DNA from: Acidobacteriota bacterium
GTDB taxonomy: Bacteria > Acidobacteriota > Thermoanaerobaculia > Gp7-AA8
Length of the DNA stretch: 36,807 bases
Direction: 5' to 3'
Assembly: GCA_019244185.1 (NCBI GenBank)
Contig: JAFATB010000003.1
Coordinates: 1-36,807, forward strand
This document shows, piece by piece, positions 5,170 through 14,585 of the stretch. The notes under the pieces were generated by a model. It ran no database searches. It was not told the origin of the DNA and saw only the letters and a list, made by a program, of their open reading frames with translations. Numbering within the stretch: position 1 is the stretch's first letter; each line of letters opens with the position of its first letter. The translations under genes and the position numbers were made by a program.

Positions 5170-5802
5170 TCAATATTTCCCGCCGCACTCCGGACAGAAC
5201 TTCGGCGAGCCTTCGGCTTCGTGGCCGCAGTCGTTGCAGGTCTTCTTCGCGCTCAGCGTCGTTCCGCATTCCTGGCAGAACTTCCCGCCTTGTGTTTTCG
5301 CGCCGCAGTGCGGGCATACCGCGCCGCTGACGGTGCGGATGTCGCGTTGCTTCGTCCAGTCGACGGTGCGGGCCTTCTCGTGGATCTGTTCGCGCGCGGC
5401 TTCGGCCTGGGCGGCGGCCATCTCCTCATCGAGATCGGGCGCGCAGTTCTCGCAGAGGCCGGCCTTCTTGTTCCAGCAGATCGGCTCGCAGACCCAGTTG
5501 CCGCAGCGCGTGCACTGCTTGAATGTCGGCGCGATTTCCTTGACCGCGTTCTTGAGCGCCGAATCGTGGGCGGGACCGCCGACGGCGCGTTGGACTTCGT
5601 AGGCGCTGTCGGCCACGCCGCTGAACATGCCGCCGAGGAAACCGCTGGCGACGCGGGCGGCCGAGCCGAGCATCCCGATCTTGGAAGTCTCGAACGACGA
5701 CATGTACCCGTTGTGGCACTTCTCGCAATAGAACTTGAACTGATACCCGCGGTCGGTCGAGAGGTCTTCGTAGTTGCCGGTGAACGGAATGGCTGGAGGC
5801 AT
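5170..5802 (-). CDS. Multi zinc-ribbon (double zinc ribbon) domain protein
   Basis: MPPAIPFTGNYEDLSTDRGYQFKFYCEKC start with GGAG RBS; CxxC pairs CEKC, CTRC, CENC, CPHC, CQEC, CNDC and CPEC. It is the C-terminal 210 aa of listed ORF 5170..7599. Confidence 0.88.
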   Translation of the reverse strand: MPPAIPFTGNYEDLSTDRGYQFKFYCEKCHNGYMSSFETSKIGMLGSAARVASGFLGGMFSGVADSAYEVQRAVGGPAHDSALKNAVKEIAPTFKQCTRCGNWVCEPICWNKKAGLCENCAPDLDEEMAAAQAEAAREQIHEKARTVDWTKQRDIRTVSGAVCPHCGAKTQGGKFCQECGTTLSAKKTCNDCGHEAEGSPKFCPECGGKY

Positions 5803-5856
5803 GGGAGTTTCTCCGGATCGTGTGATGAACGGCTGACGAATTATCATCGCCCGCGC

Positions 5857-7785
5857 ATGAGCAGGCAACACGTGAGCGCGGCGCTCGTCTTCGCGGCGCT
5901 GTCGATCGCGATGACCTGGCCGCTGCTCCCGAACCTCGGCACCGCCGTTTCGGATCCCGGCGATCCGTACATCAACACCTGGATCCTCGACTGGGATTGG
6001 TGGGCGACGCTGCATCAGCCGCTGACGCTCTTCGATGCGAACGCGTTGTATCCGGCCAGGCTCACGCTCGCGTTCAGCGAGCACTTGTACGGGATTGCGT
6101 TGCTGCTCTTTCCGCTGCGGGTGATCGGCGTGCCGCCGCTCGCGGCGCACAACGTGGCGATGTTGATGGGGTTCGGGTTCTGCGGCTTCGCGATGTATTT
6201 GCTCGCGTGGCGGCTGACGCGATCGTGGGCGGCGGCGGTGGCGGCGGGTGTCTTCTACGCGTTCGTCCCGTTCCGGTTCACGCATCTGCCGCACGTGCAG
6301 CACGTGTGGGGCGGCTGGTTGCCGCTGATGCTGCTCATGCTGTTGCTGTACGCGGCCGAGCCGGCGCGGCGGTATGCGATCGCGTTCGCGGTGATGTTCG
6401 CGCTGAACGGCCTCACGAACGTGCACTACTTGTTCTTCGGCGCGTTCGCGTGCGGCGTCACGGCGGTGCTGGTGGTGCCGAAGCGCGCGTGGCGTGAGCT
6501 TGCGATCGCGACAGCGTGCGCGTGCGCGGTGCTCGTGCCGTTCCTCGTGCCGTATGCGCTGGCCGCGAAGCAGTACGGCTTGCAGCGGACGTGGGAGGAG
6601 ACGTGGGGCTACTCCGCGTACGCGAGCGACTGGATTGCGGCGTGGGTGGCGCAGCCGGAGCGGCGGCTGTATCCCGGCGCGCTCGCGCTGATCGTCGCGG
6701 CGCTCGCATTGATCGTCGCGCGACGCGAGCGGCCGAAGCTGCTCCTCGGATTGTTGTGGATCGCCATCGGCTTCTGCGGCTCGCTCGGACTGCACTTCGA
6801 GTTTCATCGATTCCTGTTCGGCGCGGTGCCGGGATTCCGCGCGATCCGCGTGCCGGCGCGCTGGGCCGTCATCGCGTACGTCGGGCTCGCGATCCTGATC
6901 GCGCTCTTCACCGCGGTCGTCGAGCGGAAGCATCGCCGGGCGGCGCTGCTCGTGCCGCTCGCGTTCACGATCGCGCTGTGGCAGGCGCCGATTCGCTGGT
7001 ACCTGGCGGCGCCCGCGGCGCCGGTGTACGCGTGGCTCGCGCAGGGACCGCGCACGCCGATCATCGAGCTGCCGATCGAGGCGGAGAACAGCGAGTATCG
7101 CGCGTATCTCCACGCGACGGTGCATCACCGCCCGATGGTCAACGGCATCCCCGTGCTGCCGGAGCGCGCGTCGCTTGCCGCGAAGTTCAATCCGGCGGTT
7201 GCCGACGATTTCGTCGACGCGCTGCATGCGATCGCCGTCGACCTCATCGTCGTGCACGCCGACCTCCTCGGCGCGCGCGCCGAGGAGATCCGCGCGTGGC
7301 TGCGGCGCGAGCTCGCACGCGGACGTCTCGCGTACGTCGCCGACTTCGACACGTCGATCGACGGCGACTGGGTCTTTCGTGTCGCGCCGCGCACGCGCGC
7401 CGCGAATCCGCCGCGGCTCGAGTCGTTCCTGCGCGGCGAGCCGCGCTGCGGCGCGTCGATGATGGGCGCGCTCGACGTGCCTTCGCCGGGAACCGCATTC
7501 CGCTACGACGGCATGTTCTCGGGATGGGCGATCTCGCCGTACGGCATTCGCAGCGTCGACATCTACCTCGAGAATCGCCGCGTGCACTACGCCGCGCACC
7601 TTGGACGCGACGCGGGGCTCGACGCGCGTTGCCCCGGTGATGAGCGCTACGCGCGCAAGCGCTTCGTGCTCGTGCTTCCCGCGCGACCCGCGGCCGTGCG
7701 GCGCGACACCGACGTCCAGGTCGACATCACCGACGAGCGTGGCGTCACGACGTCGCTCGAAGACCGCTGGCTTCGGTGGGAATGA
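5857..7785 (+). CDS. Polytopic membrane protein, probable GT-C-fold glycosyltransferase (PMT/ArnT/YfhO-like)
   Basis: First TM helix followed by DPGDPYINTWILDW; many TM helices; RVPARW and HHRPMVNG motifs; soluble C-terminal domain. Confidence 0.75.
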   Translation: MSRQHVSAALVFAALSIAMTWPLLPNLGTAVSDPGDPYINTWILDWDWWATLHQPLTLFDANALYPARLTLAFSEHLYGIALLLFPLRVIGVPPLAAHNVAMLMGFGFCGFAMYLLAWRLTRSWAAAVAAGVFYAFVPFRFTHLPHVQHVWGGWLPLMLLMLLLYAAEPARRYAIAFAVMFALNGLTNVHYLFFGAFACGVTAVLVVPKRAWRELAIATACACAVLVPFLVPYALAAKQYGLQRTWEETWGYSAYASDWIAAWVAQPERRLYPGALALIVAALALIVARRERPKLLLGLLWIAIGFCGSLGLHFEFHRFLFGAVPGFRAIRVPARWAVIAYVGLAILIALFTAVVERKHRRAALLVPLAFTIALWQAPIRWYLAAPAAPVYAWLAQGPRTPIIELPIEAENSEYRAYLHATVHHRPMVNGIPVLPERASLAAKFNPAVADDFVDALHAIAVDLIVVHADLLGARAEEIRAWLRRELARGRLAYVADFDTSIDGDWVFRVAPRTRAANPPRLESFLRGEPRCGASMMGALDVPSPGTAFRYDGMFSGWAISPYGIRSVDIYLENRRVHYAAHLGRDAGLDARCPGDERYARKRFVLVLPARPAAVRRDTDVQVDITDERGVTTSLEDRWLRWE

Positions 7786-7832
7786 CGTTCTGCTAGCATC
7801 CGCCGCGAAGACGCAACCCTTAAGGAGGAACC

Positions 7833-8662
7833 ATGCGGAAATTGATTTCGCTGCTGCTCGTGGCCTTCGCCGCGACGAGCGCGCTTGCGCAGGTGCGCAC
7901 GCCGCGCCCGAGCCCGTCGGCGACGCTGACCCAGACCGTCGGCCTCACCGACATCACCATCAAGTACAGCCGTCCCGGCGTGAAGGGACGCACGATCTGG
8001 GGCGGACTCGTGCCGTACGACAAGGTTTGGCGTACCGGTGCGAACGAGGCCACGACCATCGCGTTCAGCGACGACGTCCTCGTCAACGGCAACAAGCTCG
8101 CGAAGGGCACGTACGCGATCGAGACCATCCCCGGCCAGGATCAGTGGACGTTGATCTTCAACCGCGTCGCCGATCAGTGGGGCGCGTTCCAGTACGACGC
8201 GACGAAGGACGCGCTGCGCATTCAGGCCAGGCCGCAGACGGCCGACTATCGCGAGTGGCTGACGTTCGAGATCCCGGAGATGACCACCGACACGGCCACG
8301 GTCGTGCTGCGCTGGGAGAAGCTTGCGCTGCCGTTCACGATCGACACGCAGTCGACCGAGAAGACGTGCGTGCTCTCAAGAACGCGATGCAGCCCGACTG
8401 GCGCACGCCGTATCAGGCGGCGAGCTTCGCCTTCGACAACAAGGGCGCCGCCAGCGACGCGGAACTGAACGCGTGGCTCGACCAGTCGCTGAAGGTGAAC
8501 CAGAACACGAACAACCTCTGGCTCAAGGCGCGCCTCGCGCAGCGCGGCGGCAACCTCGCCGACGCGGTGCGCTACGGCGAGATGGCCGTCGCCGCCGCGA
8601 CGCCGGCGCAGACCGATCTCGCCAACGAGATCCGCAAGACGCTCGACAGCTGGAAGAAGTAA
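7833..8662 (+). pseudogene. DUF2911-domain secreted protein with TPR-like C-terminus, interrupted by a 1-nt frameshift near 8367 (pseudogene or sequence error)
   Basis: AAGGAGG RBS and signal peptide; PRPSP, YSRPGVKGRTIWGGLVPYDKVWRTGANEAT. The protein-like sequence continues in the -1 frame (RALKNAMQPDWRTPYQAA...LDSWKK). The span is 830 nt, one short of a multiple of 3. Confidence 0.85.
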
Positions 8663-8679
8663 AGACGTTGACCACCGTC

Positions 8680-8715
8680 CGGACGGGGCCGCGCGCGCGG
8701 TTCCGTCCGTTCCTT
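8680..8715 (+). terminator. Probable intrinsic terminator after the DUF2911 gene
   Basis: Stem CGGACGGGGCCGC / GCGGTTCCGTCCG (two G-U pairs) followed by a weak TTCCTT tail. Confidence 0.55.
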
Positions 8716-8747
8716 GCGGACCAGCCCGCCACCTCCGCAGAAATGCA

Positions 8748-8777
8748 TTGACGTCCATGCTTCGCGACGCCTAACGT
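8748..8777 (+). promoter_or_regulatory. Sigma70-like promoter
   Basis: TTGACG-N18-TAACGT upstream of the GAGGAGG RBS of the gene at 8846. Confidence 0.45.
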
Positions 8778-8845
8778 GACGCTCGCCCACACTGACCGAG
8801 CTCACCGCAGCGGCGTGCGATGCGCCGCACCTGAGGAGGCGTTCA

Positions 8846-10045
8846 ATGCGACTGAACCCGTTTCTCTTCGTCCCGGTGGCCCTGCTCCTCGCTCTTCCGC
8901 TTCGCGCGCAGTGCGGCGTCGAACGCTGGTCGATCAAGACCGGCACCGACTCCGGCGCCTCCGCCATCAATCTAGGCAGCTACGTCTCCAGCACGATCTA
9001 CAACATGCAGCAGTCGGTGCGGCCGGCGTCGATCCCGTCGACGACGCGCGTTGCGCCGCGCGAGACGACGCAGTACCAGGTGAGCGGCACGCTCATCAAG
9101 TACGCGAAGGAAAGCGACTCCGACTATCACCTCGTCATCAAAGACTCCGCCGGCCGCACGATGATCGTCGAGATCCCCGCGCCGAACTGCGTCGGCGCCG
9201 GCAGCCCGTTCGGTCCCGGCATCGCCAACGCGCGCCGGCAGTTCGACGCGCGCTTCACCGCGACGACGTCGTTCAAGACCACGTCGACCGCTGTCACCGT
9301 GCGCGGCGTCGGCTTCTGGGACTTTCTCCACGGCCAGACCGGCGTCTCGCCGAACGGCATCGAGCTGCATTCGGTGCTGAACATCACCTTCCCCGCGTCG
9401 CTGCTCGCGACCGGCGTGCAGTCGCTGCCTGGCGACGAGCCGGCCGCCGATCCGTCGGATGACGTGCACTATCCCGCCGACGTGATCGGCGACGAGGACG
9501 GCGGACGCGTGCGCGTCTACCGTGGCGGTGCGGTGTTGGGCGATGACGCGCTCTTCCACGGTGGCGTCGTCGTCGAAGATCCGTCGGTCGTCATCGTCTT
9601 CGCCGGCGATCGGTGGGACGCCGCGCATCGCGCCGCCGTACAGCGTGCCGTCCGCTCGATGAGCGCCGACGCCGGCTTCCGCGACCTCGATCGCTACGGC
9701 GTGCGCACGTTCGGGCTGCGCGTCAACGCGGTCCAGCTCCCCGAGGCGGGACGCGATCTCTCCGAGCTCGACGTGCAGCGGCTGCTCGCGAATGCGGTCG
9801 AAGACGGGCGCATCCAGCATGTCGACGAGAACGCGATCTATCTCGTGATGCTCGATCCGGCGATGGACGCCTCGATCGCGAGCGATCGCGACTGGCGCTC
9901 GTATCACTCCGAGTTCCATCCGACCGATCTCGCCATGCGCTACGTCGTGGCGCGCGGCGGCCTCGACGAAGCCGCGCTCGGCGACGCAATCCACGCCAGC
10001 GTCTACCGCGCGCTCGTCAACCCCGCGGGGAACGGCTGGTTCTGA
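8846..10045 (+). CDS. Secreted two-domain hypothetical protein (OB-fold-like N-domain, Phi_1/EXORDIUM-like C-domain)
   Basis: Signal peptide and GAGGAGG RBS; CGVERWSIKTGTD...DSDYHLVI...GFWDFLHGQTG...IELH; C-terminal FHGGVVV...YHS...LVNPAGNGWF. Domain calls are by-eye resemblance. Confidence 0.7.
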   Translation: MRLNPFLFVPVALLLALPLRAQCGVERWSIKTGTDSGASAINLGSYVSSTIYNMQQSVRPASIPSTTRVAPRETTQYQVSGTLIKYAKESDSDYHLVIKDSAGRTMIVEIPAPNCVGAGSPFGPGIANARRQFDARFTATTSFKTTSTAVTVRGVGFWDFLHGQTGVSPNGIELHSVLNITFPASLLATGVQSLPGDEPAADPSDDVHYPADVIGDEDGGRVRVYRGGAVLGDDALFHGGVVVEDPSVVIVFAGDRWDAAHRAAVQRAVRSMSADAGFRDLDRYGVRTFGLRVNAVQLPEAGRDLSELDVQRLLANAVEDGRIQHVDENAIYLVMLDPAMDASIASDRDWRSYHSEFHPTDLAMRYVVARGGLDEAALGDAIHASVYRALVNPAGNGWF

Positions 10046-10053
10046 GACTGCGC

Positions 10054-10377
10054 GTGCGCTTCGTCCGCCTCGCCATCGTGGCAACGGCCCTCGTGCTGTT
10101 GCCACGATGTACCGTCTCCGTGTCGCGCTACGCGTTCGAGACCGCGCTGAAAAATCAGGCGAACATCGACCGCATTCACATCGGCCAGACGCTCGCCGAA
10201 GTCGAGAAGATCATGGGCAAGCCGCCCGAACGCCGCAACGCGCGCGTCCGCTTCGACGGCATCTCCATCGAAGAGTGGAGCTACCTCACCGACTACGTCC
10301 GCCGCATGGACACGACCATCACCTTCGTCGGCGGCAAGGTCGACGAGATCCACGCGGCGGGTTGGGAAGAGGAGTGA
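10054..10377 (+). CDS. Small putative lipoprotein, SmpA/OmlA (BamE-like)/DUF3192-type fold
   Basis: GTG start, hydrophobic leader ending in Cys; IHIGQTLAEVEKIMGKP...EEWSY...ITFVGGKV pattern. Confidence 0.7.
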   Translation: MRFVRLAIVATALVLLPRCTVSVSRYAFETALKNQANIDRIHIGQTLAEVEKIMGKPPERRNARVRFDGISIEEWSYLTDYVRRMDTTITFVGGKVDEIHAAGWEEE

Positions 10378-10396: not shown

Positions 10397-10426
10397 TTGA
10401 CTTCGACTCCGGCGCGCGCGTACCCT
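10397..10426 (+). promoter_or_regulatory. Sigma70-like promoter for the leader-hen1-pnkp transcript
   Basis: TTGACT (10397-10402), N18, TACCCT (10421-10426). Confidence 0.55.
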
Positions 10427-10436
10427 GCCGCTTCCA

Positions 10437-10529
10437 ATGACGATCCAGCAGCTCGTGTACAAACCCGATTTCGCGGAGATGCGCGAACGCGTCGCCGCGT
10501 ATTCGGGTCAGCCTCGCTCGTCGCCATAG
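10437..10529 (+). CDS. Putative leader peptide (uORF, 30 aa): MTIQQLVYKPDFAEMRERVAAYSGQPRSSP
   Basis: ATG lies 10 nt after the -10 box with no SD. The TAG stop overlaps the first base of the antiterminator arm. Confidence 0.55.
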   Translation: MTIQQLVYKPDFAEMRERVAAYSGQPRSSP

Positions 10530-10585
10530 AAGGTCGCTCTCTCAAGATGTAATTCGAGCGACCCTTCACCGGGCCGCTTTTTTTT
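10529..10585 (+). promoter_or_regulatory. Attenuator: mutually exclusive antiterminator and intrinsic terminator upstream of hen1
   Basis: A=GAAGGTCGCTC (10529-10539) pairs with B=GAGCGACCCTTC (10556-10567), 11 bp with one bulge. Alternatively B pairs with GGGCCGCTT (10571-10579), followed by T8 (10578-10585). Confidence 0.7.
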
Positions 10586-10597
10586 GGTCTGAACAAC

Positions 10598-11992
10598 ATG
10601 CTCCTGACAATCACCACCACGCATCGCCCGGCTACGGATCTGGGCTACCTGCTGCACAAGAACCCGGCGCGCCTGCACCGGATCGAGCTCGCGTTCGGAG
10701 AGGCGTACGTCGCATATCCCGAGGCGACCGAAGAGCGTTGCACGGCCGCCTTGGTCGTCGACGTCGATACCGTGGGCCTCGTGCGACGCGCGTCGGGAGA
10801 GCCTTCGCTCTTCCAGTACGTGAACGATCGTCCGTACGCCGCGAGCTCGTTTCTGAGCGTTGCGATGGTCAACGCGTTCCGCACCGCGATGGCGGGGCGG
10901 AGCAAGGACCGGCCGGAGCTCGTGGCCACGCCATTCCCGCTCGAACTGCGGATCGTCGGACTGCCGTGCCGCGGCGGCGAGGCGATCCTTCGTCAACTGT
11001 TCGAGCCGCTCGGATACGAAGTCGACGCTGAGCAGTTGCCGCTCGACGAGCGCTTCCCGGAATGGGGCGGCAGCCGTTTTTTCAACGTCACGCTGCGGGC
11101 GAACGTCACGGTGCGCGACGCGCTGTCGCATCTCTATGTCTGCATTCCCGTGCTCGATGCGGAAAAGCATTACTGGGTGGGCGACGACGAGGTCGACAAG
11201 CTCCTGCGTCACGGCGCGGGGTGGCTCGCCGCGCATCCGCATCGGAACGCCATCGCCCGTCGCTACCTCAAGCACAAGAAGGCGCTGGTCCGCGATGCGG
11301 TGCAGCGTCTCGTGCAGCAGGACATGGAGGAGGAAGACGAGCAGCAGGAGGCGAAAGCCGCCGAAGAGGAGACCATCGAGAAGAAGGTCAGCCTCAACGA
11401 GCGGCGTATGACGCGCGTGCTCGAGGCGCTCCGGGAGCACGGTGCGACCAGCGTCATCGACCTCGGATGCGGCGAAGGGCGGTTGCTGCGCAGCCTCATG
11501 CAGGAGCGCGCGTTCACGAAAGTCGGTGGCATGGACGTTTCGACGCGCGCGCTCGAGATCGCGCGGGAGAAGCTGCGCGTCGATACGATGCCGGAGCGGC
11601 AGCGCGCGAAGCTCGCGCTTTTTCAGGGCTCGCTCGTCTATCGCGACAAAAGGCTGCGCGAGTACGACGCGGCGACCGCCGTGGAGGTCATCGAGCATCT
11701 CGATCCCCTGCGCCTGTCCGCGTTCGAGCGCGTGGTCTTCGGCGAAACGCAGCCGCGACTGATGATCGTCACGACGCCGAACGTCGAATACAACGTCCGC
11801 TTCGAGTCGCTGCCGGCCGGCCGGCTGCGCCACCGCGATCATCGCTTCGAATGGACGCGTGCGGAGTTCCGCGCATGGGCCGCCCGTGTGGCGACGACGT
11901 ACGGCTACGCATGCGAATGGCTGCCGATCGGCGATGAGGATGCCGACGTCGGACCGCCGACGCAGATGGCCGTGTTCACGAGGACCGTATGA
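10598..11992 (+). CDS. hen1: 3'-terminal RNA ribose 2'-O-methyltransferase Hen1
   Basis: MLLTITTTHRPATDLGYLLHKNP N-domain; YVNDRPY, KHYWVG, DLGCGEG, EVIEH and RHRDHRFEW motifs. Confidence 0.96.
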   Translation: MLLTITTTHRPATDLGYLLHKNPARLHRIELAFGEAYVAYPEATEERCTAALVVDVDTVGLVRRASGEPSLFQYVNDRPYAASSFLSVAMVNAFRTAMAGRSKDRPELVATPFPLELRIVGLPCRGGEAILRQLFEPLGYEVDAEQLPLDERFPEWGGSRFFNVTLRANVTVRDALSHLYVCIPVLDAEKHYWVGDDEVDKLLRHGAGWLAAHPHRNAIARRYLKHKKALVRDAVQRLVQQDMEEEDEQQEAKAAEEETIEKKVSLNERRMTRVLEALREHGATSVIDLGCGEGRLLRSLMQERAFTKVGGMDVSTRALEIAREKLRVDTMPERQRAKLALFQGSLVYRDKRLREYDAATAVEVIEHLDPLRLSAFERVVFGETQPRLMIVTTPNVEYNVRFESLPAGRLRHRDHRFEWTRAEFRAWAARVATTYGYACEWLPIGDEDADVGPPTQMAVFTRTV

Positions 11993-14559
11993 AGATTCCT
12001 GAGCTTTCCCTTGTCACGCTGATCGGCGCATCCGGTTCCGGTAAGTCGTCGTTCGCGCGACGTCACTTCAAGCCGACGGAAGTCGTCTCGTCCGACTTTT
12101 GCCGCGGACTCGTGTCCGACGACGAGAATGATCAGGCGGCGTCCCAGGACGCATTCGACCTGCTGTACACGATCGTGCGCAAACGACTCGCGCGCGGGCA
12201 CCTGACCGTCGTCGATGCGACGAACGTGGAGGAGAGTGCCCGCAGGCAGCTCGTCGCGATCGCGCGCGAATACCACGTGCTGCCGGTGGCGATCGTGCTC
12301 GACGTGCCGGAGCGAATCTGCCACGACCGCAATGCGTCGCGCGCGGACCGGCAGTTCGGCCCGCACGTCATCCGCCGTCAGACCGGTGCGTTGCGCCGTT
12401 CGCTCCGCAACCTCGGCCGGGAGGGCTTCCGCTATGCGTACGTCCTGCGGTCGGTGGAGGAAATCGACGCTGCGCAGTTCGTCCGCGAGCCGCTCTACAA
12501 CAACCGCAAGCACGAGCATGGACCGTTCGACCTCATCGGCGACGTGCATGGCTGCTACGACGAGCTGGTCGCGCTCCTCGATCGCCTGGGCTACGAGCGG
12601 ACGGAATCCGGGCTGCGCCATCCCGCGGGACGCAAGGCCGTGCTTCTCGGCGATCTCGTCGACCGCGGCCCGAAGACGCCCGAGGTGCTCGAGCTCGTGA
12701 TGCAGATGGTCCAGGATGAGGCGGCGCTCGCGGTACCGGGCAATCACGACATCAAGCTGATGCGTGCGCTGCAGGGGAAGAAGGTGAAGGTCACGCACGG
12801 CCTCGCTGAATCTCTCGAGCAGCTCGCGCAGCGCCCGCCCGAGTTCCGCGAGCGCGTCGTGTCGTTCATCGACTCGCTGGTCAGCCACTTCGTGCTGGAC
12901 GATGGGCGGCTCGTGGTGGCGCATGCAGGCATGAAGCAGGAGATGCAGGGTCGTGGCTCGGGTCGCGTGCGCGAGTTCGCGCTCTTCGGCGAGACCACCG
13001 GTGAGACCGATGAGTTCGGACTGCCGGTCCGCTACAACTGGGCCGCCGATTACCGTGGCCGCGCGCTCGTCGTCTACGGCCACACGCCGGTCGGCGAGCC
13101 GGAGTGGCTCAACTCGACGATCTGCATCGACACCGGCTGCGTGTTCGGCGGCAGGCTGACGGCGTTGCGTTACCCGGAGCGCGAGCTCCTCTCCGTGGAG
13201 GCTGCGCGCATGTACTACGAGCCCGCGAAGCCGTTGGCAGCGACGATCGAGGACGCGCACGCCAGCGGTGCCGCGCCGCGCCGGCGATCCGCACAGCAGG
13301 AGCTCGACGATGTGCTCGATCTCGAGGATGTCTCCGGAAAGCACATCATCGCGACGTCGCTGAAGCAGAACGTCGTGATCCGTGAGGAGAACGCGATGGC
13401 GGCGCTCGAAGTGATGAGCCGCTTCGCGGCGAATCCGAAATGGCTCGTGTACCTGCCGCCGACGATGTCGCCCAGCGACACGTCGAAGCGCGAGGGATTG
13501 CTCGAGCATCCTGAGGACGCCTTCGCGTACTTTCGCGCGTCGGGCGTGGCGAAGGTCGTGTGCGAAGAGAAGCACATGGGCTCGCGCGCGGTGGTCGTGG
13601 TGTGCCGCGATGAAGATGTCGCGCGTCGCCGTTTCGGCGTCGACGGTGAGGGCATCGGCATCGTCTACACGCGCACCGGCCGGCGTTTTTTCAGCGATTC
13701 CATGCTCCCACTCGAAGCGGAGCTCCTCGCGCATCTGCGCGATGCATTGACGCGGAACGACGCGTGGTCAGGCTTCTCGACCGATTGGTTCGTCCTGGAC
13801 TGCGAGCTGATGCCGTGGTCCGTGAAGGCGGAGGATCTCGTGCGCGGACAGTACGCCTCCGTCGGCGCGGTTGCCGGCGCGGCGATGCATGCGGCACGCG
13901 AGGTCTTTCGGGCGTCCGCCACGCGGGTCGGGGAAGCGGCGGCCGTTGCGGAGGCATTCGACGCGCGTGCGGCGATGGTCTCGCAATACGTCGACGCGTA
14001 CCGTCGCTACTGCTGGCCGGTGAGCTCGCTGCTCGACGTGCGTCTCGCGCCGTTCCACGTTCTCGCGACGGAAGGCGCGGCACACGCCGGCAGGGATCAC
14101 GTGTGGCACATGGAGTCGATCGGCGCCATGATCGCCGGCGACGAGACCGGCATTCTCATGGCGACGCCGTATCGAGTCGTCGACCTCGCGGACGATGCGA
14201 GTGTCGCCGCCGCGACGGAGTGGTGGGAATCGATGACGGCGCGCGGCGGCGAAGGGATGGTCGTGAAGCCGCTCGACTTCATCGCGCGCAATGCGCGCGG
14301 CCTCGTGCAGCCGGCGGTGAAGTGTCGCGGCCCGGAGTACCTGCGCATCATCTACGGTCCTGAGTACTCGGCACCGCACAATCTGCCGCGCCTGCGCGCA
14401 CGCCGTCTCGGCGGCAAGCGATCGCTGGCGCTGCGGGAGTTCGCTCTCGGCGTCGAGGCGTTGCAGCGCTTCGTCGCGCGCGAGCCGCTGCGGCGCGTGC
14501 ACGAATGCGTGTTCGGCGTGCTGGCGCTCGAGAGCGAACCGGTCGATCCGCGGCTGTAA
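11989..14559 (+). CDS. pnkp: Polynucleotide kinase-phosphatase-ligase Pnkp
   Basis: P-loop GASGSGKS; metallophosphatase GDVHG, GDLVDRG and GNHD; ligase EEKHMGSR, EGMVVKP and C-terminal EPVDPRL; ATGA overlap with hen1. Confidence 0.96.
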   Translation: MKIPELSLVTLIGASGSGKSSFARRHFKPTEVVSSDFCRGLVSDDENDQAASQDAFDLLYTIVRKRLARGHLTVVDATNVEESARRQLVAIAREYHVLPVAIVLDVPERICHDRNASRADRQFGPHVIRRQTGALRRSLRNLGREGFRYAYVLRSVEEIDAAQFVREPLYNNRKHEHGPFDLIGDVHGCYDELVALLDRLGYERTESGLRHPAGRKAVLLGDLVDRGPKTPEVLELVMQMVQDEAALAVPGNHDIKLMRALQGKKVKVTHGLAESLEQLAQRPPEFRERVVSFIDSLVSHFVLDDGRLVVAHAGMKQEMQGRGSGRVREFALFGETTGETDEFGLPVRYNWAADYRGRALVVYGHTPVGEPEWLNSTICIDTGCVFGGRLTALRYPERELLSVEAARMYYEPAKPLAATIEDAHASGAAPRRRSAQQELDDVLDLEDVSGKHIIATSLKQNVVIREENAMAALEVMSRFAANPKWLVYLPPTMSPSDTSKREGLLEHPEDAFAYFRASGVAKVVCEEKHMGSRAVVVVCRDEDVARRRFGVDGEGIGIVYTRTGRRFFSDSMLPLEAELLAHLRDALTRNDAWSGFSTDWFVLDCELMPWSVKAEDLVRGQYASVGAVAGAAMHAAREVFRASATRVGEAAAVAEAFDARAAMVSQYVDAYRRYCWPVSSLLDVRLAPFHVLATEGAAHAGRDHVWHMESIGAMIAGDETGILMATPYRVVDLADDASVAAATEWWESMTARGGEGMVVKPLDFIARNARGLVQPAVKCRGPEYLRIIYGPEYSAPHNLPRLRARRLGGKRSLALREFALGVEALQRFVAREPLRRVHECVFGVLALESEPVDPRL

Positions 14560-14585
14560 GGGGAGTAGCCTCGCGGCTACTCCCC
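14560..14585. terminator. Perfect 11-bp hairpin immediately after the pnkp stop
   Basis: GGGGAGTAGCC-TCGC-GGCTACTCCCC; no U-tract on either side. Confidence 0.6.

Follow-up and report, generated by a model that had tools for sequence, protein, structure and literature searches.

A candidate ribosome-sensing attenuator in front of the hen1-pnkp RNA repair operon of an Acidobacteriota bacterium

Results

We analyzed a stretch of 36,807 nucleotides (nt) from an Acidobacteriota bacterium (assembly GCA_019244185.1, contig JAFATB010000003.1), the whole of which is called the window here. It carries the RNA repair genes hen1 and pnkp, and we found that the leader in front of hen1 is probably a ribosome-dependent transcription attenuator of the whiB7/trp type. 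With such a leader, hen1-pnkp would probably be transcribed only upon ribosome stalling. A ribosome-sensing attenuator had been proposed at this site from the DNA of the window (the original prediction), and our comparative sequence analysis supports this interpretation. The sequence elements of the leader, their alternative pairings, the pairing energies, their conservation and their geometry were observed directly.

Elements of the leader

When we reread the sequence, the promoter, the upstream open reading frame (uORF), the pairing segments A, B and C, the T8 tract and the hen1 start codon were all located where the original prediction had placed them. The nearest upstream gene, an open reading frame (ORF) of about 105 residues on the same strand (third-position G+C 0.89), ends at 10377, and the leader therefore corresponds to the 220-nt intergenic gap before hen1. 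The elements are:

10397..10402, + strand: -35 box TTGACT (read from the sequence)
10421..10426, + strand: -10 box TACCCT, following the -35 box after an 18-nt spacer (read from the sequence)
10437..10529, + strand: leaderless-type uORF of 30 codons plus TAG (10527-10529), with its ATG 10 nt past the -10 box; frame MTIQQLVYKPDFAEMRERVAAYSGQPRSSP
10500-10502, + strand: conserved Tyr codon of the uORF, position -9 (alignment of the C-terminal codons)
10506-10508, + strand: conserved Gly codon GGT of the uORF, position -7 (alignment of the C-terminal codons)
10529..10539, + strand: segment A, GAAGGTCGCTC, 5' strand of the anti-terminator, its first base being the G of the stop codon (minimum-energy fold; GGTCGC core conserved in relatives)
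10540..10555, + strand: A-B spacer, which is the anti-terminator loop (length kept in relatives, sequence not)
10556..10567, + strand: segment B, GAGCGACCCTTC, common to the anti-terminator (with A) and the terminator (with C) (folds; AGCGA.CC invariant in alignment A2)
10571..10579, + strand: segment C, GGGCCGCTT, 3' arm of the terminator (fold; alignment)
10578..10585, + strand: T8 tract of the predicted intrinsic terminator (read from the sequence; T7-9 in all leaders)
10598..11992, + strand: hen1, RNA 3'-terminal 2'-O-methyltransferase (Pfam Hen1_L 1.5e-110 plus methyltransferase domains)
11989..14559, + strand: pnkp, kinase-phosphatase-ligase (Pfam AAA_33, Metallophos and PNKP_ligase, 2.8e-177; ORF coordinates)

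The Pfam scores bear out the assignment of the two genes to a Hen1-Pnkp operon, in which the pnkp start overlaps the hen1 stop as ATGA. The T8 tract ends 12 nt before the hen1 ATG (10598). A and B form 11 base pairs (bp) with C10562 bulged out, and B and C form eight pairs and one A10561/C10574 mismatch. The mismatched C10574 of the window is a T in every relative (alignment pair 68-83 is A-U in nine leaders vs. A/C in the window). Since hen1 has no Shine-Dalgarno sequence, the T8 tract may also serve as unstructured landing site for hen1 translation.

A consensus scan of the window for promoters and terminators called neither the leader promoter nor the leader terminator. The promoter escapes such a scan because TACCCT agrees with TATAAT at three of six positions only, and the terminator because of the mismatch in its stem, so that the scan carries no information for this leader. 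The two boxes of the predicted promoter are present and conserved in relatives. The leader sequence was identical in the contigs of three DNA sequencing runs (depth 35-100), possibly those of the source samples, and a comparison of four DNA runs indicated that it is free of variants, C10574 included.

Folding of the leader

When we folded the leader with RNAfold, A:B was part of the minimum-energy structure (-61.9 kcal/mol, z = -3.35), and none of 200 shuffled sequences was equally stable. With A removed, B paired with C, followed by the U-run, and the predicted choice between A:B and B:C was thereby reproduced. At -14.4 kcal/mol the A:B stem of the window is the longest of all leaders. Its terminator stem is weak (-11.1 vs. 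-15.9 to -20.3 kcal/mol in the nine relatives folded). When A and the spacer of the window were shuffled with B kept, two of 500 shuffles matched the stability of the real A:B; across the leaders, between 0 and 21 of 500 such shuffles folded as well, and the A:B energies ranged from -10.8 to -16.9 kcal/mol.

The genome of the window (a 5.3-Mb assembly, 67% G+C) contains 14 runs of at least eight T on both strands together, and canonical terminators consisting of a hairpin and a T-run are present elsewhere in it. The motif of B, loop and C followed by a T-run occurs once in the assembly, which means that the motif search found no further regulon member. Judged by these controls, the pairing exceeds what chance would produce. 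Rfam gave no match at gathering score in the whole window; the leader yielded only matches at E = 1.7 and E = 3.8.

Conservation among related leaders

Closely similar leaders, here called class 1, form a set of 11: nine precede hen1 in genomes of the window's family, one lies on a metagenome contig and one in genome G007. The -35 box reads TTGAC(A/T) in ten of them (TTGACA in G007) and TTACAA in one. The -10 box reads TA(C/A/G/T)(C/T)(C/A)T, with TA..CT invariant in alignment A1, and the spacer between the boxes measures 16-18 nt. In all 11 leaders the first ATG lies 9-13 nt past the -10 box, in frame with the stop codon that adjoins A and with no in-frame stop in between, so that the 5' untranslated region comprises a few bases only. 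The uORFs are 17, 19, 20, 20, 23, 25, 25, 26, 27, 27 and 30 codons long. The position of their stop is nevertheless conserved, as had been foreseen: its end lies at -1, 0 or +2 nt from the GGTC core of A throughout the set. The distance from the stop to B is 25-28 nt in ten leaders and 24 nt in G007. Between A and B the length is constant, and the sequence columns of alignment A2 are unconserved.

B (GAGCGACCC) and C (GGGTCGC) are near-invariant and are followed by T7-9. All 11 leaders have a terminator with a G+C stem of 8-12 bp in front of this T-run, 9-22 nt before the gene, with one mismatch in the window. The regulated gene starts 9-14 nt past the U-run (22 nt in one leader) without a Shine-Dalgarno sequence. 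Taken together, the conserved blocks are -35, -10, ATG, stop plus A, B, C and T-run, and the peptide sequence of the uORF is mostly unconserved. The genes upstream of the leader differ or are divergent among relatives. Therefore, the hairpin and U-run are not the terminator of an upstream gene, and the unit moves with the gene downstream. The uORF stop codon is TAG in ten of the 11 leaders and never TGA, which accounts for 61% of the stops in the genome. Pro is the last uORF residue in seven of 11 leaders; the Pro-stop ending of the window had been put forward as a possible pause site.

A second leader class

Another leader, unrelated in sequence to class 1, was found before hen1 in Actinomycetota-type contigs (Gaiellaceae, Solirubrobacterales, Actinomycetota and Actinomycetes where named), and Thermoleophilia-type bacteria are among the members of its clade. 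For this class 2, we inspected the 250 nt upstream of hen1 at L061, L069, L076, L084, L094, L145/146, L163/164, L179, L182, L193 and L194. The uORF has 17-41 codons, starts 6-12 nt past a TAnnnT box and ends with TAG in ten of ten loci. In seven of the nine leaders folded, the G of this TAG is the first paired base of a three-tier stem of -25 to -33 kcal/mol. The 3' strand of the anti-terminator (GAGGGCG) is at the same time the 5' half of the terminator arm AGGGCGACC...GGTCGCC(C)TTT. RNAalifold recovered the stem, and two of its 14 pairs carry compensatory changes. The competing strand lies inside the uORF in the remaining two folded leaders (L069, L076) and, as judged by eye, in L094, L182 and L179.

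The strongest argument for a function of this geometry is that hen1 is preceded by it, with the stop placed on the stem, in two sequences that are unrelated to each other, and the recurrence of the same logic in Acidobacteriota and in Actinomycetota-type contigs suggests selection for the coupling. In the Hen1 tree, classes 1 and 2 form a joint clade (support 0.65) together with 17 other members, which is compatible with either a common or a separate origin.

Distribution of the leader

Hen1 is present in 11 of the 124 genomes of the window's family; this tally, like the others over 124 genomes, includes G002, G024 and G042, none of which has leader or hen1. Nine of the 11 hen1-bearing genomes, spanning four genera, carry the class-1 leader before hen1. 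In place of the leader, hen1 of G126 (L115) is preceded by tandem copies of a repeat of about 130 nt, and upstream of hen1 in G063 (L117) a long AACGAAC-type inverted repeat reaches the GTG start. The metagenome contig with a class-1 leader, the stop of which is TAA, is the only one above 61% Hen1 identity among the 80 loci kept.

A covariance model built from the ten hen1 leaders gave ten strong matches in the 124 family genomes, namely the nine hen1 leaders and an intact copy in G007. Weak matches (26-34 bits) were obtained at 16 places in 15 genomes. Five of these (L209-L213) were inspected and turned out to be four ordinary post-gene terminators and one glnS leader. The latter (L213, contig 388 of G126) comprises what may be a leaderless uORF of 18 codons, two of them for Gln, as well as a hairpin and T6 before a glutaminyl-tRNA-synthetase-like gene, the identity of which was judged by eye from N-terminal motifs. 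It hints at a wider use of leader-peptide attenuation in the window's family. At the class level, three of 151 genomes matched the model (G000, G030 and one 34-bit match), and no strong match was found in this set beyond the window's family.

G007 has no hen1. Its leader precedes an AAA_5 (MoxR-like) ATPase gene and a DUF2201 metallopeptidase/VWA gene, and its terminator has an energy of -16.2 kcal/mol:

L225 (contig 156), ~9997-10300, - strand: leader copy, uORF of 27 codons, TAG followed directly by GTCGCTC
L225:8914-9996, - strand: AAA_5 ATPase
L225:6994-8808, - strand: DUF2201 metallopeptidase/VWA protein

In G130 the same ATPase gene directly follows pnkp, and the pair of ATPase and metallopeptidase/VWA protein may take part in the same response to damage.

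In contigs of the Terriglobales, Bryobacterales and Angelobacter types (e.g., L033, L034, L050, L058), the start codon of hen1 (ATG or GTG) follows a TATAAT/TATACT-like box at a distance of 5-8 nt, with no attenuator. Here, hen1 itself looks leaderless.

Possible signals sensed by the uORF

The original prediction had noted that the peptide of the window lacks a run of a single amino acid, and had taken this to fit general translation sensing. We likewise found no run of one codon in the ten hen1-linked peptides (222 residues in total). Over these residues Cys is enriched 5.1-fold, Tyr 2.6-fold, Pro 2.05-fold and Arg 1.5-fold relative to the proteome, and the tests overstate these effects because the peptides are related and thus not independent. 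A Tyr or His codon lies 8-10 codons before the stop in nine of 11 leaders. L118 keeps a His five codons before the stop, again with the Glu-Gly after it, and in G007 both Tyr and His are missing at this place. We also tried the set of codons targeted by colicin E5 (Tyr, His, Asn and Asp), for which joint enrichment was not supported: apart from Tyr, the values for His (1.6-fold) and Asn (1.4-fold) were not significant, and Asp was depleted (0.45-fold).

Four leaders end with G-R-x-R-A-(H/N) before the stop, encoded with synonymous differences (GGT to GGA and CGC to CGT in G007). The sequence R-x-R occurs at -6 to -4 in four of 11 leaders (RPR, RPR, RAR, RSR). An arrest motif was defined as R/K-x-R/K or RLR from the available text of PMC6310831 and from general knowledge. 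The window has QPR at this place and R-E-R at codons 16-18; the latter had been suggested as a pause site, and it is not conserved in relatives. Most leaders contain GGTCG three times, within the uORF as Gly-Arg codons (10506-10511 in the window), in A and in C. The Gly at -7 is encoded by GGT in six of the seven leaders that have Gly there, and GGT makes up 6% of the Gly codons of the genome.

In our reading, the leader would respond to failing elongation in general; a stall tied to a particular codon or drug is possible. It appears unlikely to us that the leader is a dedicated ribotoxin alarm, in which tRNA cleavage by an anticodon nuclease would stall the ribosome at the near-invariant NAY (Tyr/His) codon around -9 or at the Arg codons at -6/-4 and thereby switch on the repair enzymes. 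In such an alarm, the NAY and Arg codons would immediately precede the position at which A is no longer covered by a stalled ribosome. If this were true, the leader would be a cis-acting, ribosome-read counterpart of the sensing of tRNA halves by RtcR, and the ATPase and VWA-metallopeptidase pair of G007 would fall in the same damage response.

Discussion

We infer that the uORF is translated and that transcription terminates at the U-run, and likewise in which direction the switch works and what kind of stress acts on it; the following scenario would result. Transcription would begin a few bases before the uORF ATG, and the uORF would thus be leaderless or nearly so. As seen by toeprinting and profiling, the footprint of a ribosome extends about 12-13 nt past the first base of its A-site codon. 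When translation is smooth, a ribosome at the stop would cover the whole of A (8-11 nt) and leave B, 24-28 nt further on, free. The free B would pair with C, and RNA polymerase would terminate at the U-run (OFF). When a ribosome is held at least five codons before the stop, A would be naked as B emerges, A:B would form first and, with no terminator, hen1-pnkp would be transcribed (ON). Such a hold-up could be due to tRNA that is broken or uncharged, to ribosome damage or to an antibiotic. Peptide release is slow after a C-terminal Pro, and the Pro before the stop in seven of 11 leaders would prolong the occupancy of A. From what is generally known of release, stop codons that are TAG or TAA and never TGA, together with a terminal Pro, would fit a long-lived terminating ribosome.

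Several findings weigh against this attenuator. The naked full-length RNA folds into the terminator in ten of 11 leaders and into the anti-terminator in the window alone. In seven of 11 leaders the AUGACC start region is a good pairing partner for A (-8 to -12.7 kcal/mol), which is supported by a C:G to U:A exchange and also by a matching variant in L118. In the window, pairing of A with the 5' end is weak (-5.7 kcal/mol; 66 of 300 shuffles as good). If real, the pairing with the start region would act as anti-anti-terminator, which is weakly and inconsistently indicated (seven of 11 leaders, the window not among them). With such a pairing, loss of initiation may give OFF instead of ON, as in the hflXr leader. 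Thus, of the original proposal that failing or stalled translation switches the genes on, the attenuator as such is supported, and the branch of failed translation is uncertain. Further points are that none of the eight pairs of the class-1 terminator carries compensatory changes and that no amino acid marks an obvious sensed signal. Covariation is absent in class 1 because the stems are invariant, and the support there is conservation; of the conserved, covarying A:B and B:C stems that had been envisaged for relatives, the conserved blocks are what was found. G126 and G063 have hen1 without the leader, as do most Terriglobales and Bryobacterales. For G126 and G063, the Hen1 tree places both within the leader-bearing clade (support 1.0), and this indicates loss of the leader. 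The lack of a Shine-Dalgarno sequence before hen1 leaves room for translational control, and the sequencing runs that contain the leader sequence are DNA runs, with no RNA run among them. Finally, its weak terminator, the longest A:B of all leaders and a naked fold that corresponds to the anti-terminator imply that the copy in the window may be leaky.

Carried further, this last point leads to an explanation in which the family of leaders is an attenuator and the copy in the window has decayed to largely constitutive read-through. We regard this as a possible but somewhat improbable course of events. The exchange of T for C at 10574, which lowers the terminator to -11.1 kcal/mol, the A:B stem that is the minimum-energy fold in this leader only, and the poor pairing between A and the 5' end all speak for it. 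On the other hand, the copy has kept an intact promoter and uORF, the stop position, A, B and T8, the same sequence was recovered at depth 35-100 in three runs, and a ribosome on A would still leave B:C and U8 as the only fold. A different view is that terminator and anti-terminator form a real switch that is set by a factor acting in trans (an RNA-binding protein, a small RNA, tRNA fragments or a ligand on the GGTCGC repeats), the uORF being incidental. The three GGTCG copies and the GGT bias at Gly -7 point to a constraint at the RNA level that the ribosome model does not explain. However, the A-B loop and most of the uORF are unconserved, there is no conserved fold of the size of an aptamer, and Rfam gives nothing at gathering score (matches at E>1 only). 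Nor would such a factor demand an in-frame path from ATG to stop in 11 of 11 leaders of nine or more lengths, and the stop-on-stem geometry of the unrelated class 2 would be left unexplained. In our opinion, a trans factor is therefore quite unlikely.

Control might also be exerted on translation or mRNA stability, with the hairpins exposing or hiding the U-rich region before the hen1 ATG or protecting the 5' end. The start of hen1 at 9-14 nt past the U-run (22 nt in one leader), its missing Shine-Dalgarno sequence and the single-stranded state of C and U-run in the anti-terminated form are in line with this idea, as is the action of leaderless short ORFs (sORFs) on downstream translation in mycobacteria, according to the available text of 10.1101/834739. 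Yet a perfect G+C-rich stem of 8-12 bp plus T7-9 is the signature of an intrinsic terminator and is used as such in this genome, and the two modes are not exclusive; as the sole mode, control after transcription strikes us as very unlikely. We have even less reason to believe that the short frame encodes a small protein and has a terminator to itself, hen1-pnkp being expressed by constitutive leak or from another promoter and A:B having no regulatory role. The partly conserved C-terminal residues with synonymous changes (G-R-x-R-A-H/N in four leaders) are what a coding gene would produce. This does not sit well with a length of 17-30 residues, with the lack of conservation at most positions, with the conservation of A outside the frame directly after the stop, or with a unit that always lies 9-22 nt ahead of the gene that it accompanies.

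The ribosome-dependent attenuator resembles several known systems. In the trp, leu and his attenuators of E. coli, a leader peptide is encoded close to the promoter, its stop lies next to the strand in competition with the terminator, and termination of transcription is favoured when a ribosome terminates there. The hen1 leader would share with them the promoter-proximal leader peptide and the stop adjoining the competing strand. Unlike them, it has no regulatory codon run, its uORF is predicted to be leaderless, and an anti-anti-terminator corresponding to segment 1 is weakly and inconsistently indicated. In the whiB7 leader of mycobacteria, efficient uORF translation leads to a rho-independent terminator, and translation stress, which is sensed in general form, leads to an anti-terminator and read-through (PMC10274678, as far as its text was available, also for the comparison that follows). 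The logic of uORF-mediated attenuation and general rather than single-amino-acid sensing would be common to both. The whiB7 leader acts on a transcription factor that is under positive feedback, as opposed to repair enzymes, Ala is overrepresented in the whiB7 uORF, and the sequences are unrelated. The ATG of the hen1 leader lies 9-13 nt past the -10 box, whereas the available part of PMC10274678 does not describe the whiB7 leader as leaderless.

In the rli80-hflXr leader of Listeria, a small ORF and a terminator/anti-terminator pair turn on a translation-rescue gene upon ribosome stalling (available text of PMC6310831). The hen1 leader is akin to it, and to the related vmlR leader of B. subtilis, in that a gene rescuing the translation apparatus would be switched on when ribosomes stall. 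Leaders of the hflXr type differ in having an anti-anti-terminator inside the ORF, a start-codon mutant that is OFF and a drug-specific RLR motif, as far as that text goes; the hen1 leader has R-x-R in only four of 11 cases. Another RNA repair operon, rtcBA, is induced by damage to the translation apparatus through RtcR, a trans-acting activator with a CARF domain that binds tRNA halves with a cyclic phosphate (available text of PMC7790460). Induction of an RNA repair operon by such damage would be the common feature, and unlike RtcR the hen1 leader, as an RNA acting in cis, would detect damage by the way ribosomes move along it. Leaderless polycysteine sORFs of mycobacteria sense cysteine with a run of Cys codons and respond by making a ribosome-binding site accessible (available text of 10.1101/834739). 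They likewise place a leaderless short ORF at the head of an operon as ribosome-borne sensor and, in contrast to the hen1 leader, work without an intrinsic terminator, according to the same text.

Our literature search returned no paper on hen1, pnkp and attenuation together, and among the papers that a broader search listed, hen1 and pnkp went unmentioned. This agrees with the original prediction, which had known of no earlier description of such control for these genes. Pnkp-Hen1 has been well studied in biochemistry and structure. As to its regulation, that is, when bacteria switch it on, we found nothing in the literature searched. As far as can be read from sequence, the leader represents a known type of control that is new for these genes, a putative leader-peptide attenuator for an RNA repair operon. 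A leader that reads ribosome progress would mean that the repair genes are induced by failing translation itself. If true, this would provide a handle, testable with reporters, on the natural trigger, whether ribotoxins, antibiotics or starvation. It also adds a predicted attenuator with a leaderless uORF from a phylum with almost no experimental RNA biology.

Other features of the locus

Upstream of the leader, four successive ORFs of 854, 211, 399 and about 105 residues with high third-position G+C occupy positions 5221-10377 of the + strand, the last one having a hydrophobic N-terminus. For these four, no match was obtained in Pfam, NCBIfam or PADLOC. Directly 3' of the pnkp stop, at 14560-14585, lies a perfect 11-bp hairpin (GGGGAGTAGCC, loop TCGC, GGCTACTCCCC) without a U-run, which may form the 3' end of the operon mRNA or stabilise this mRNA.

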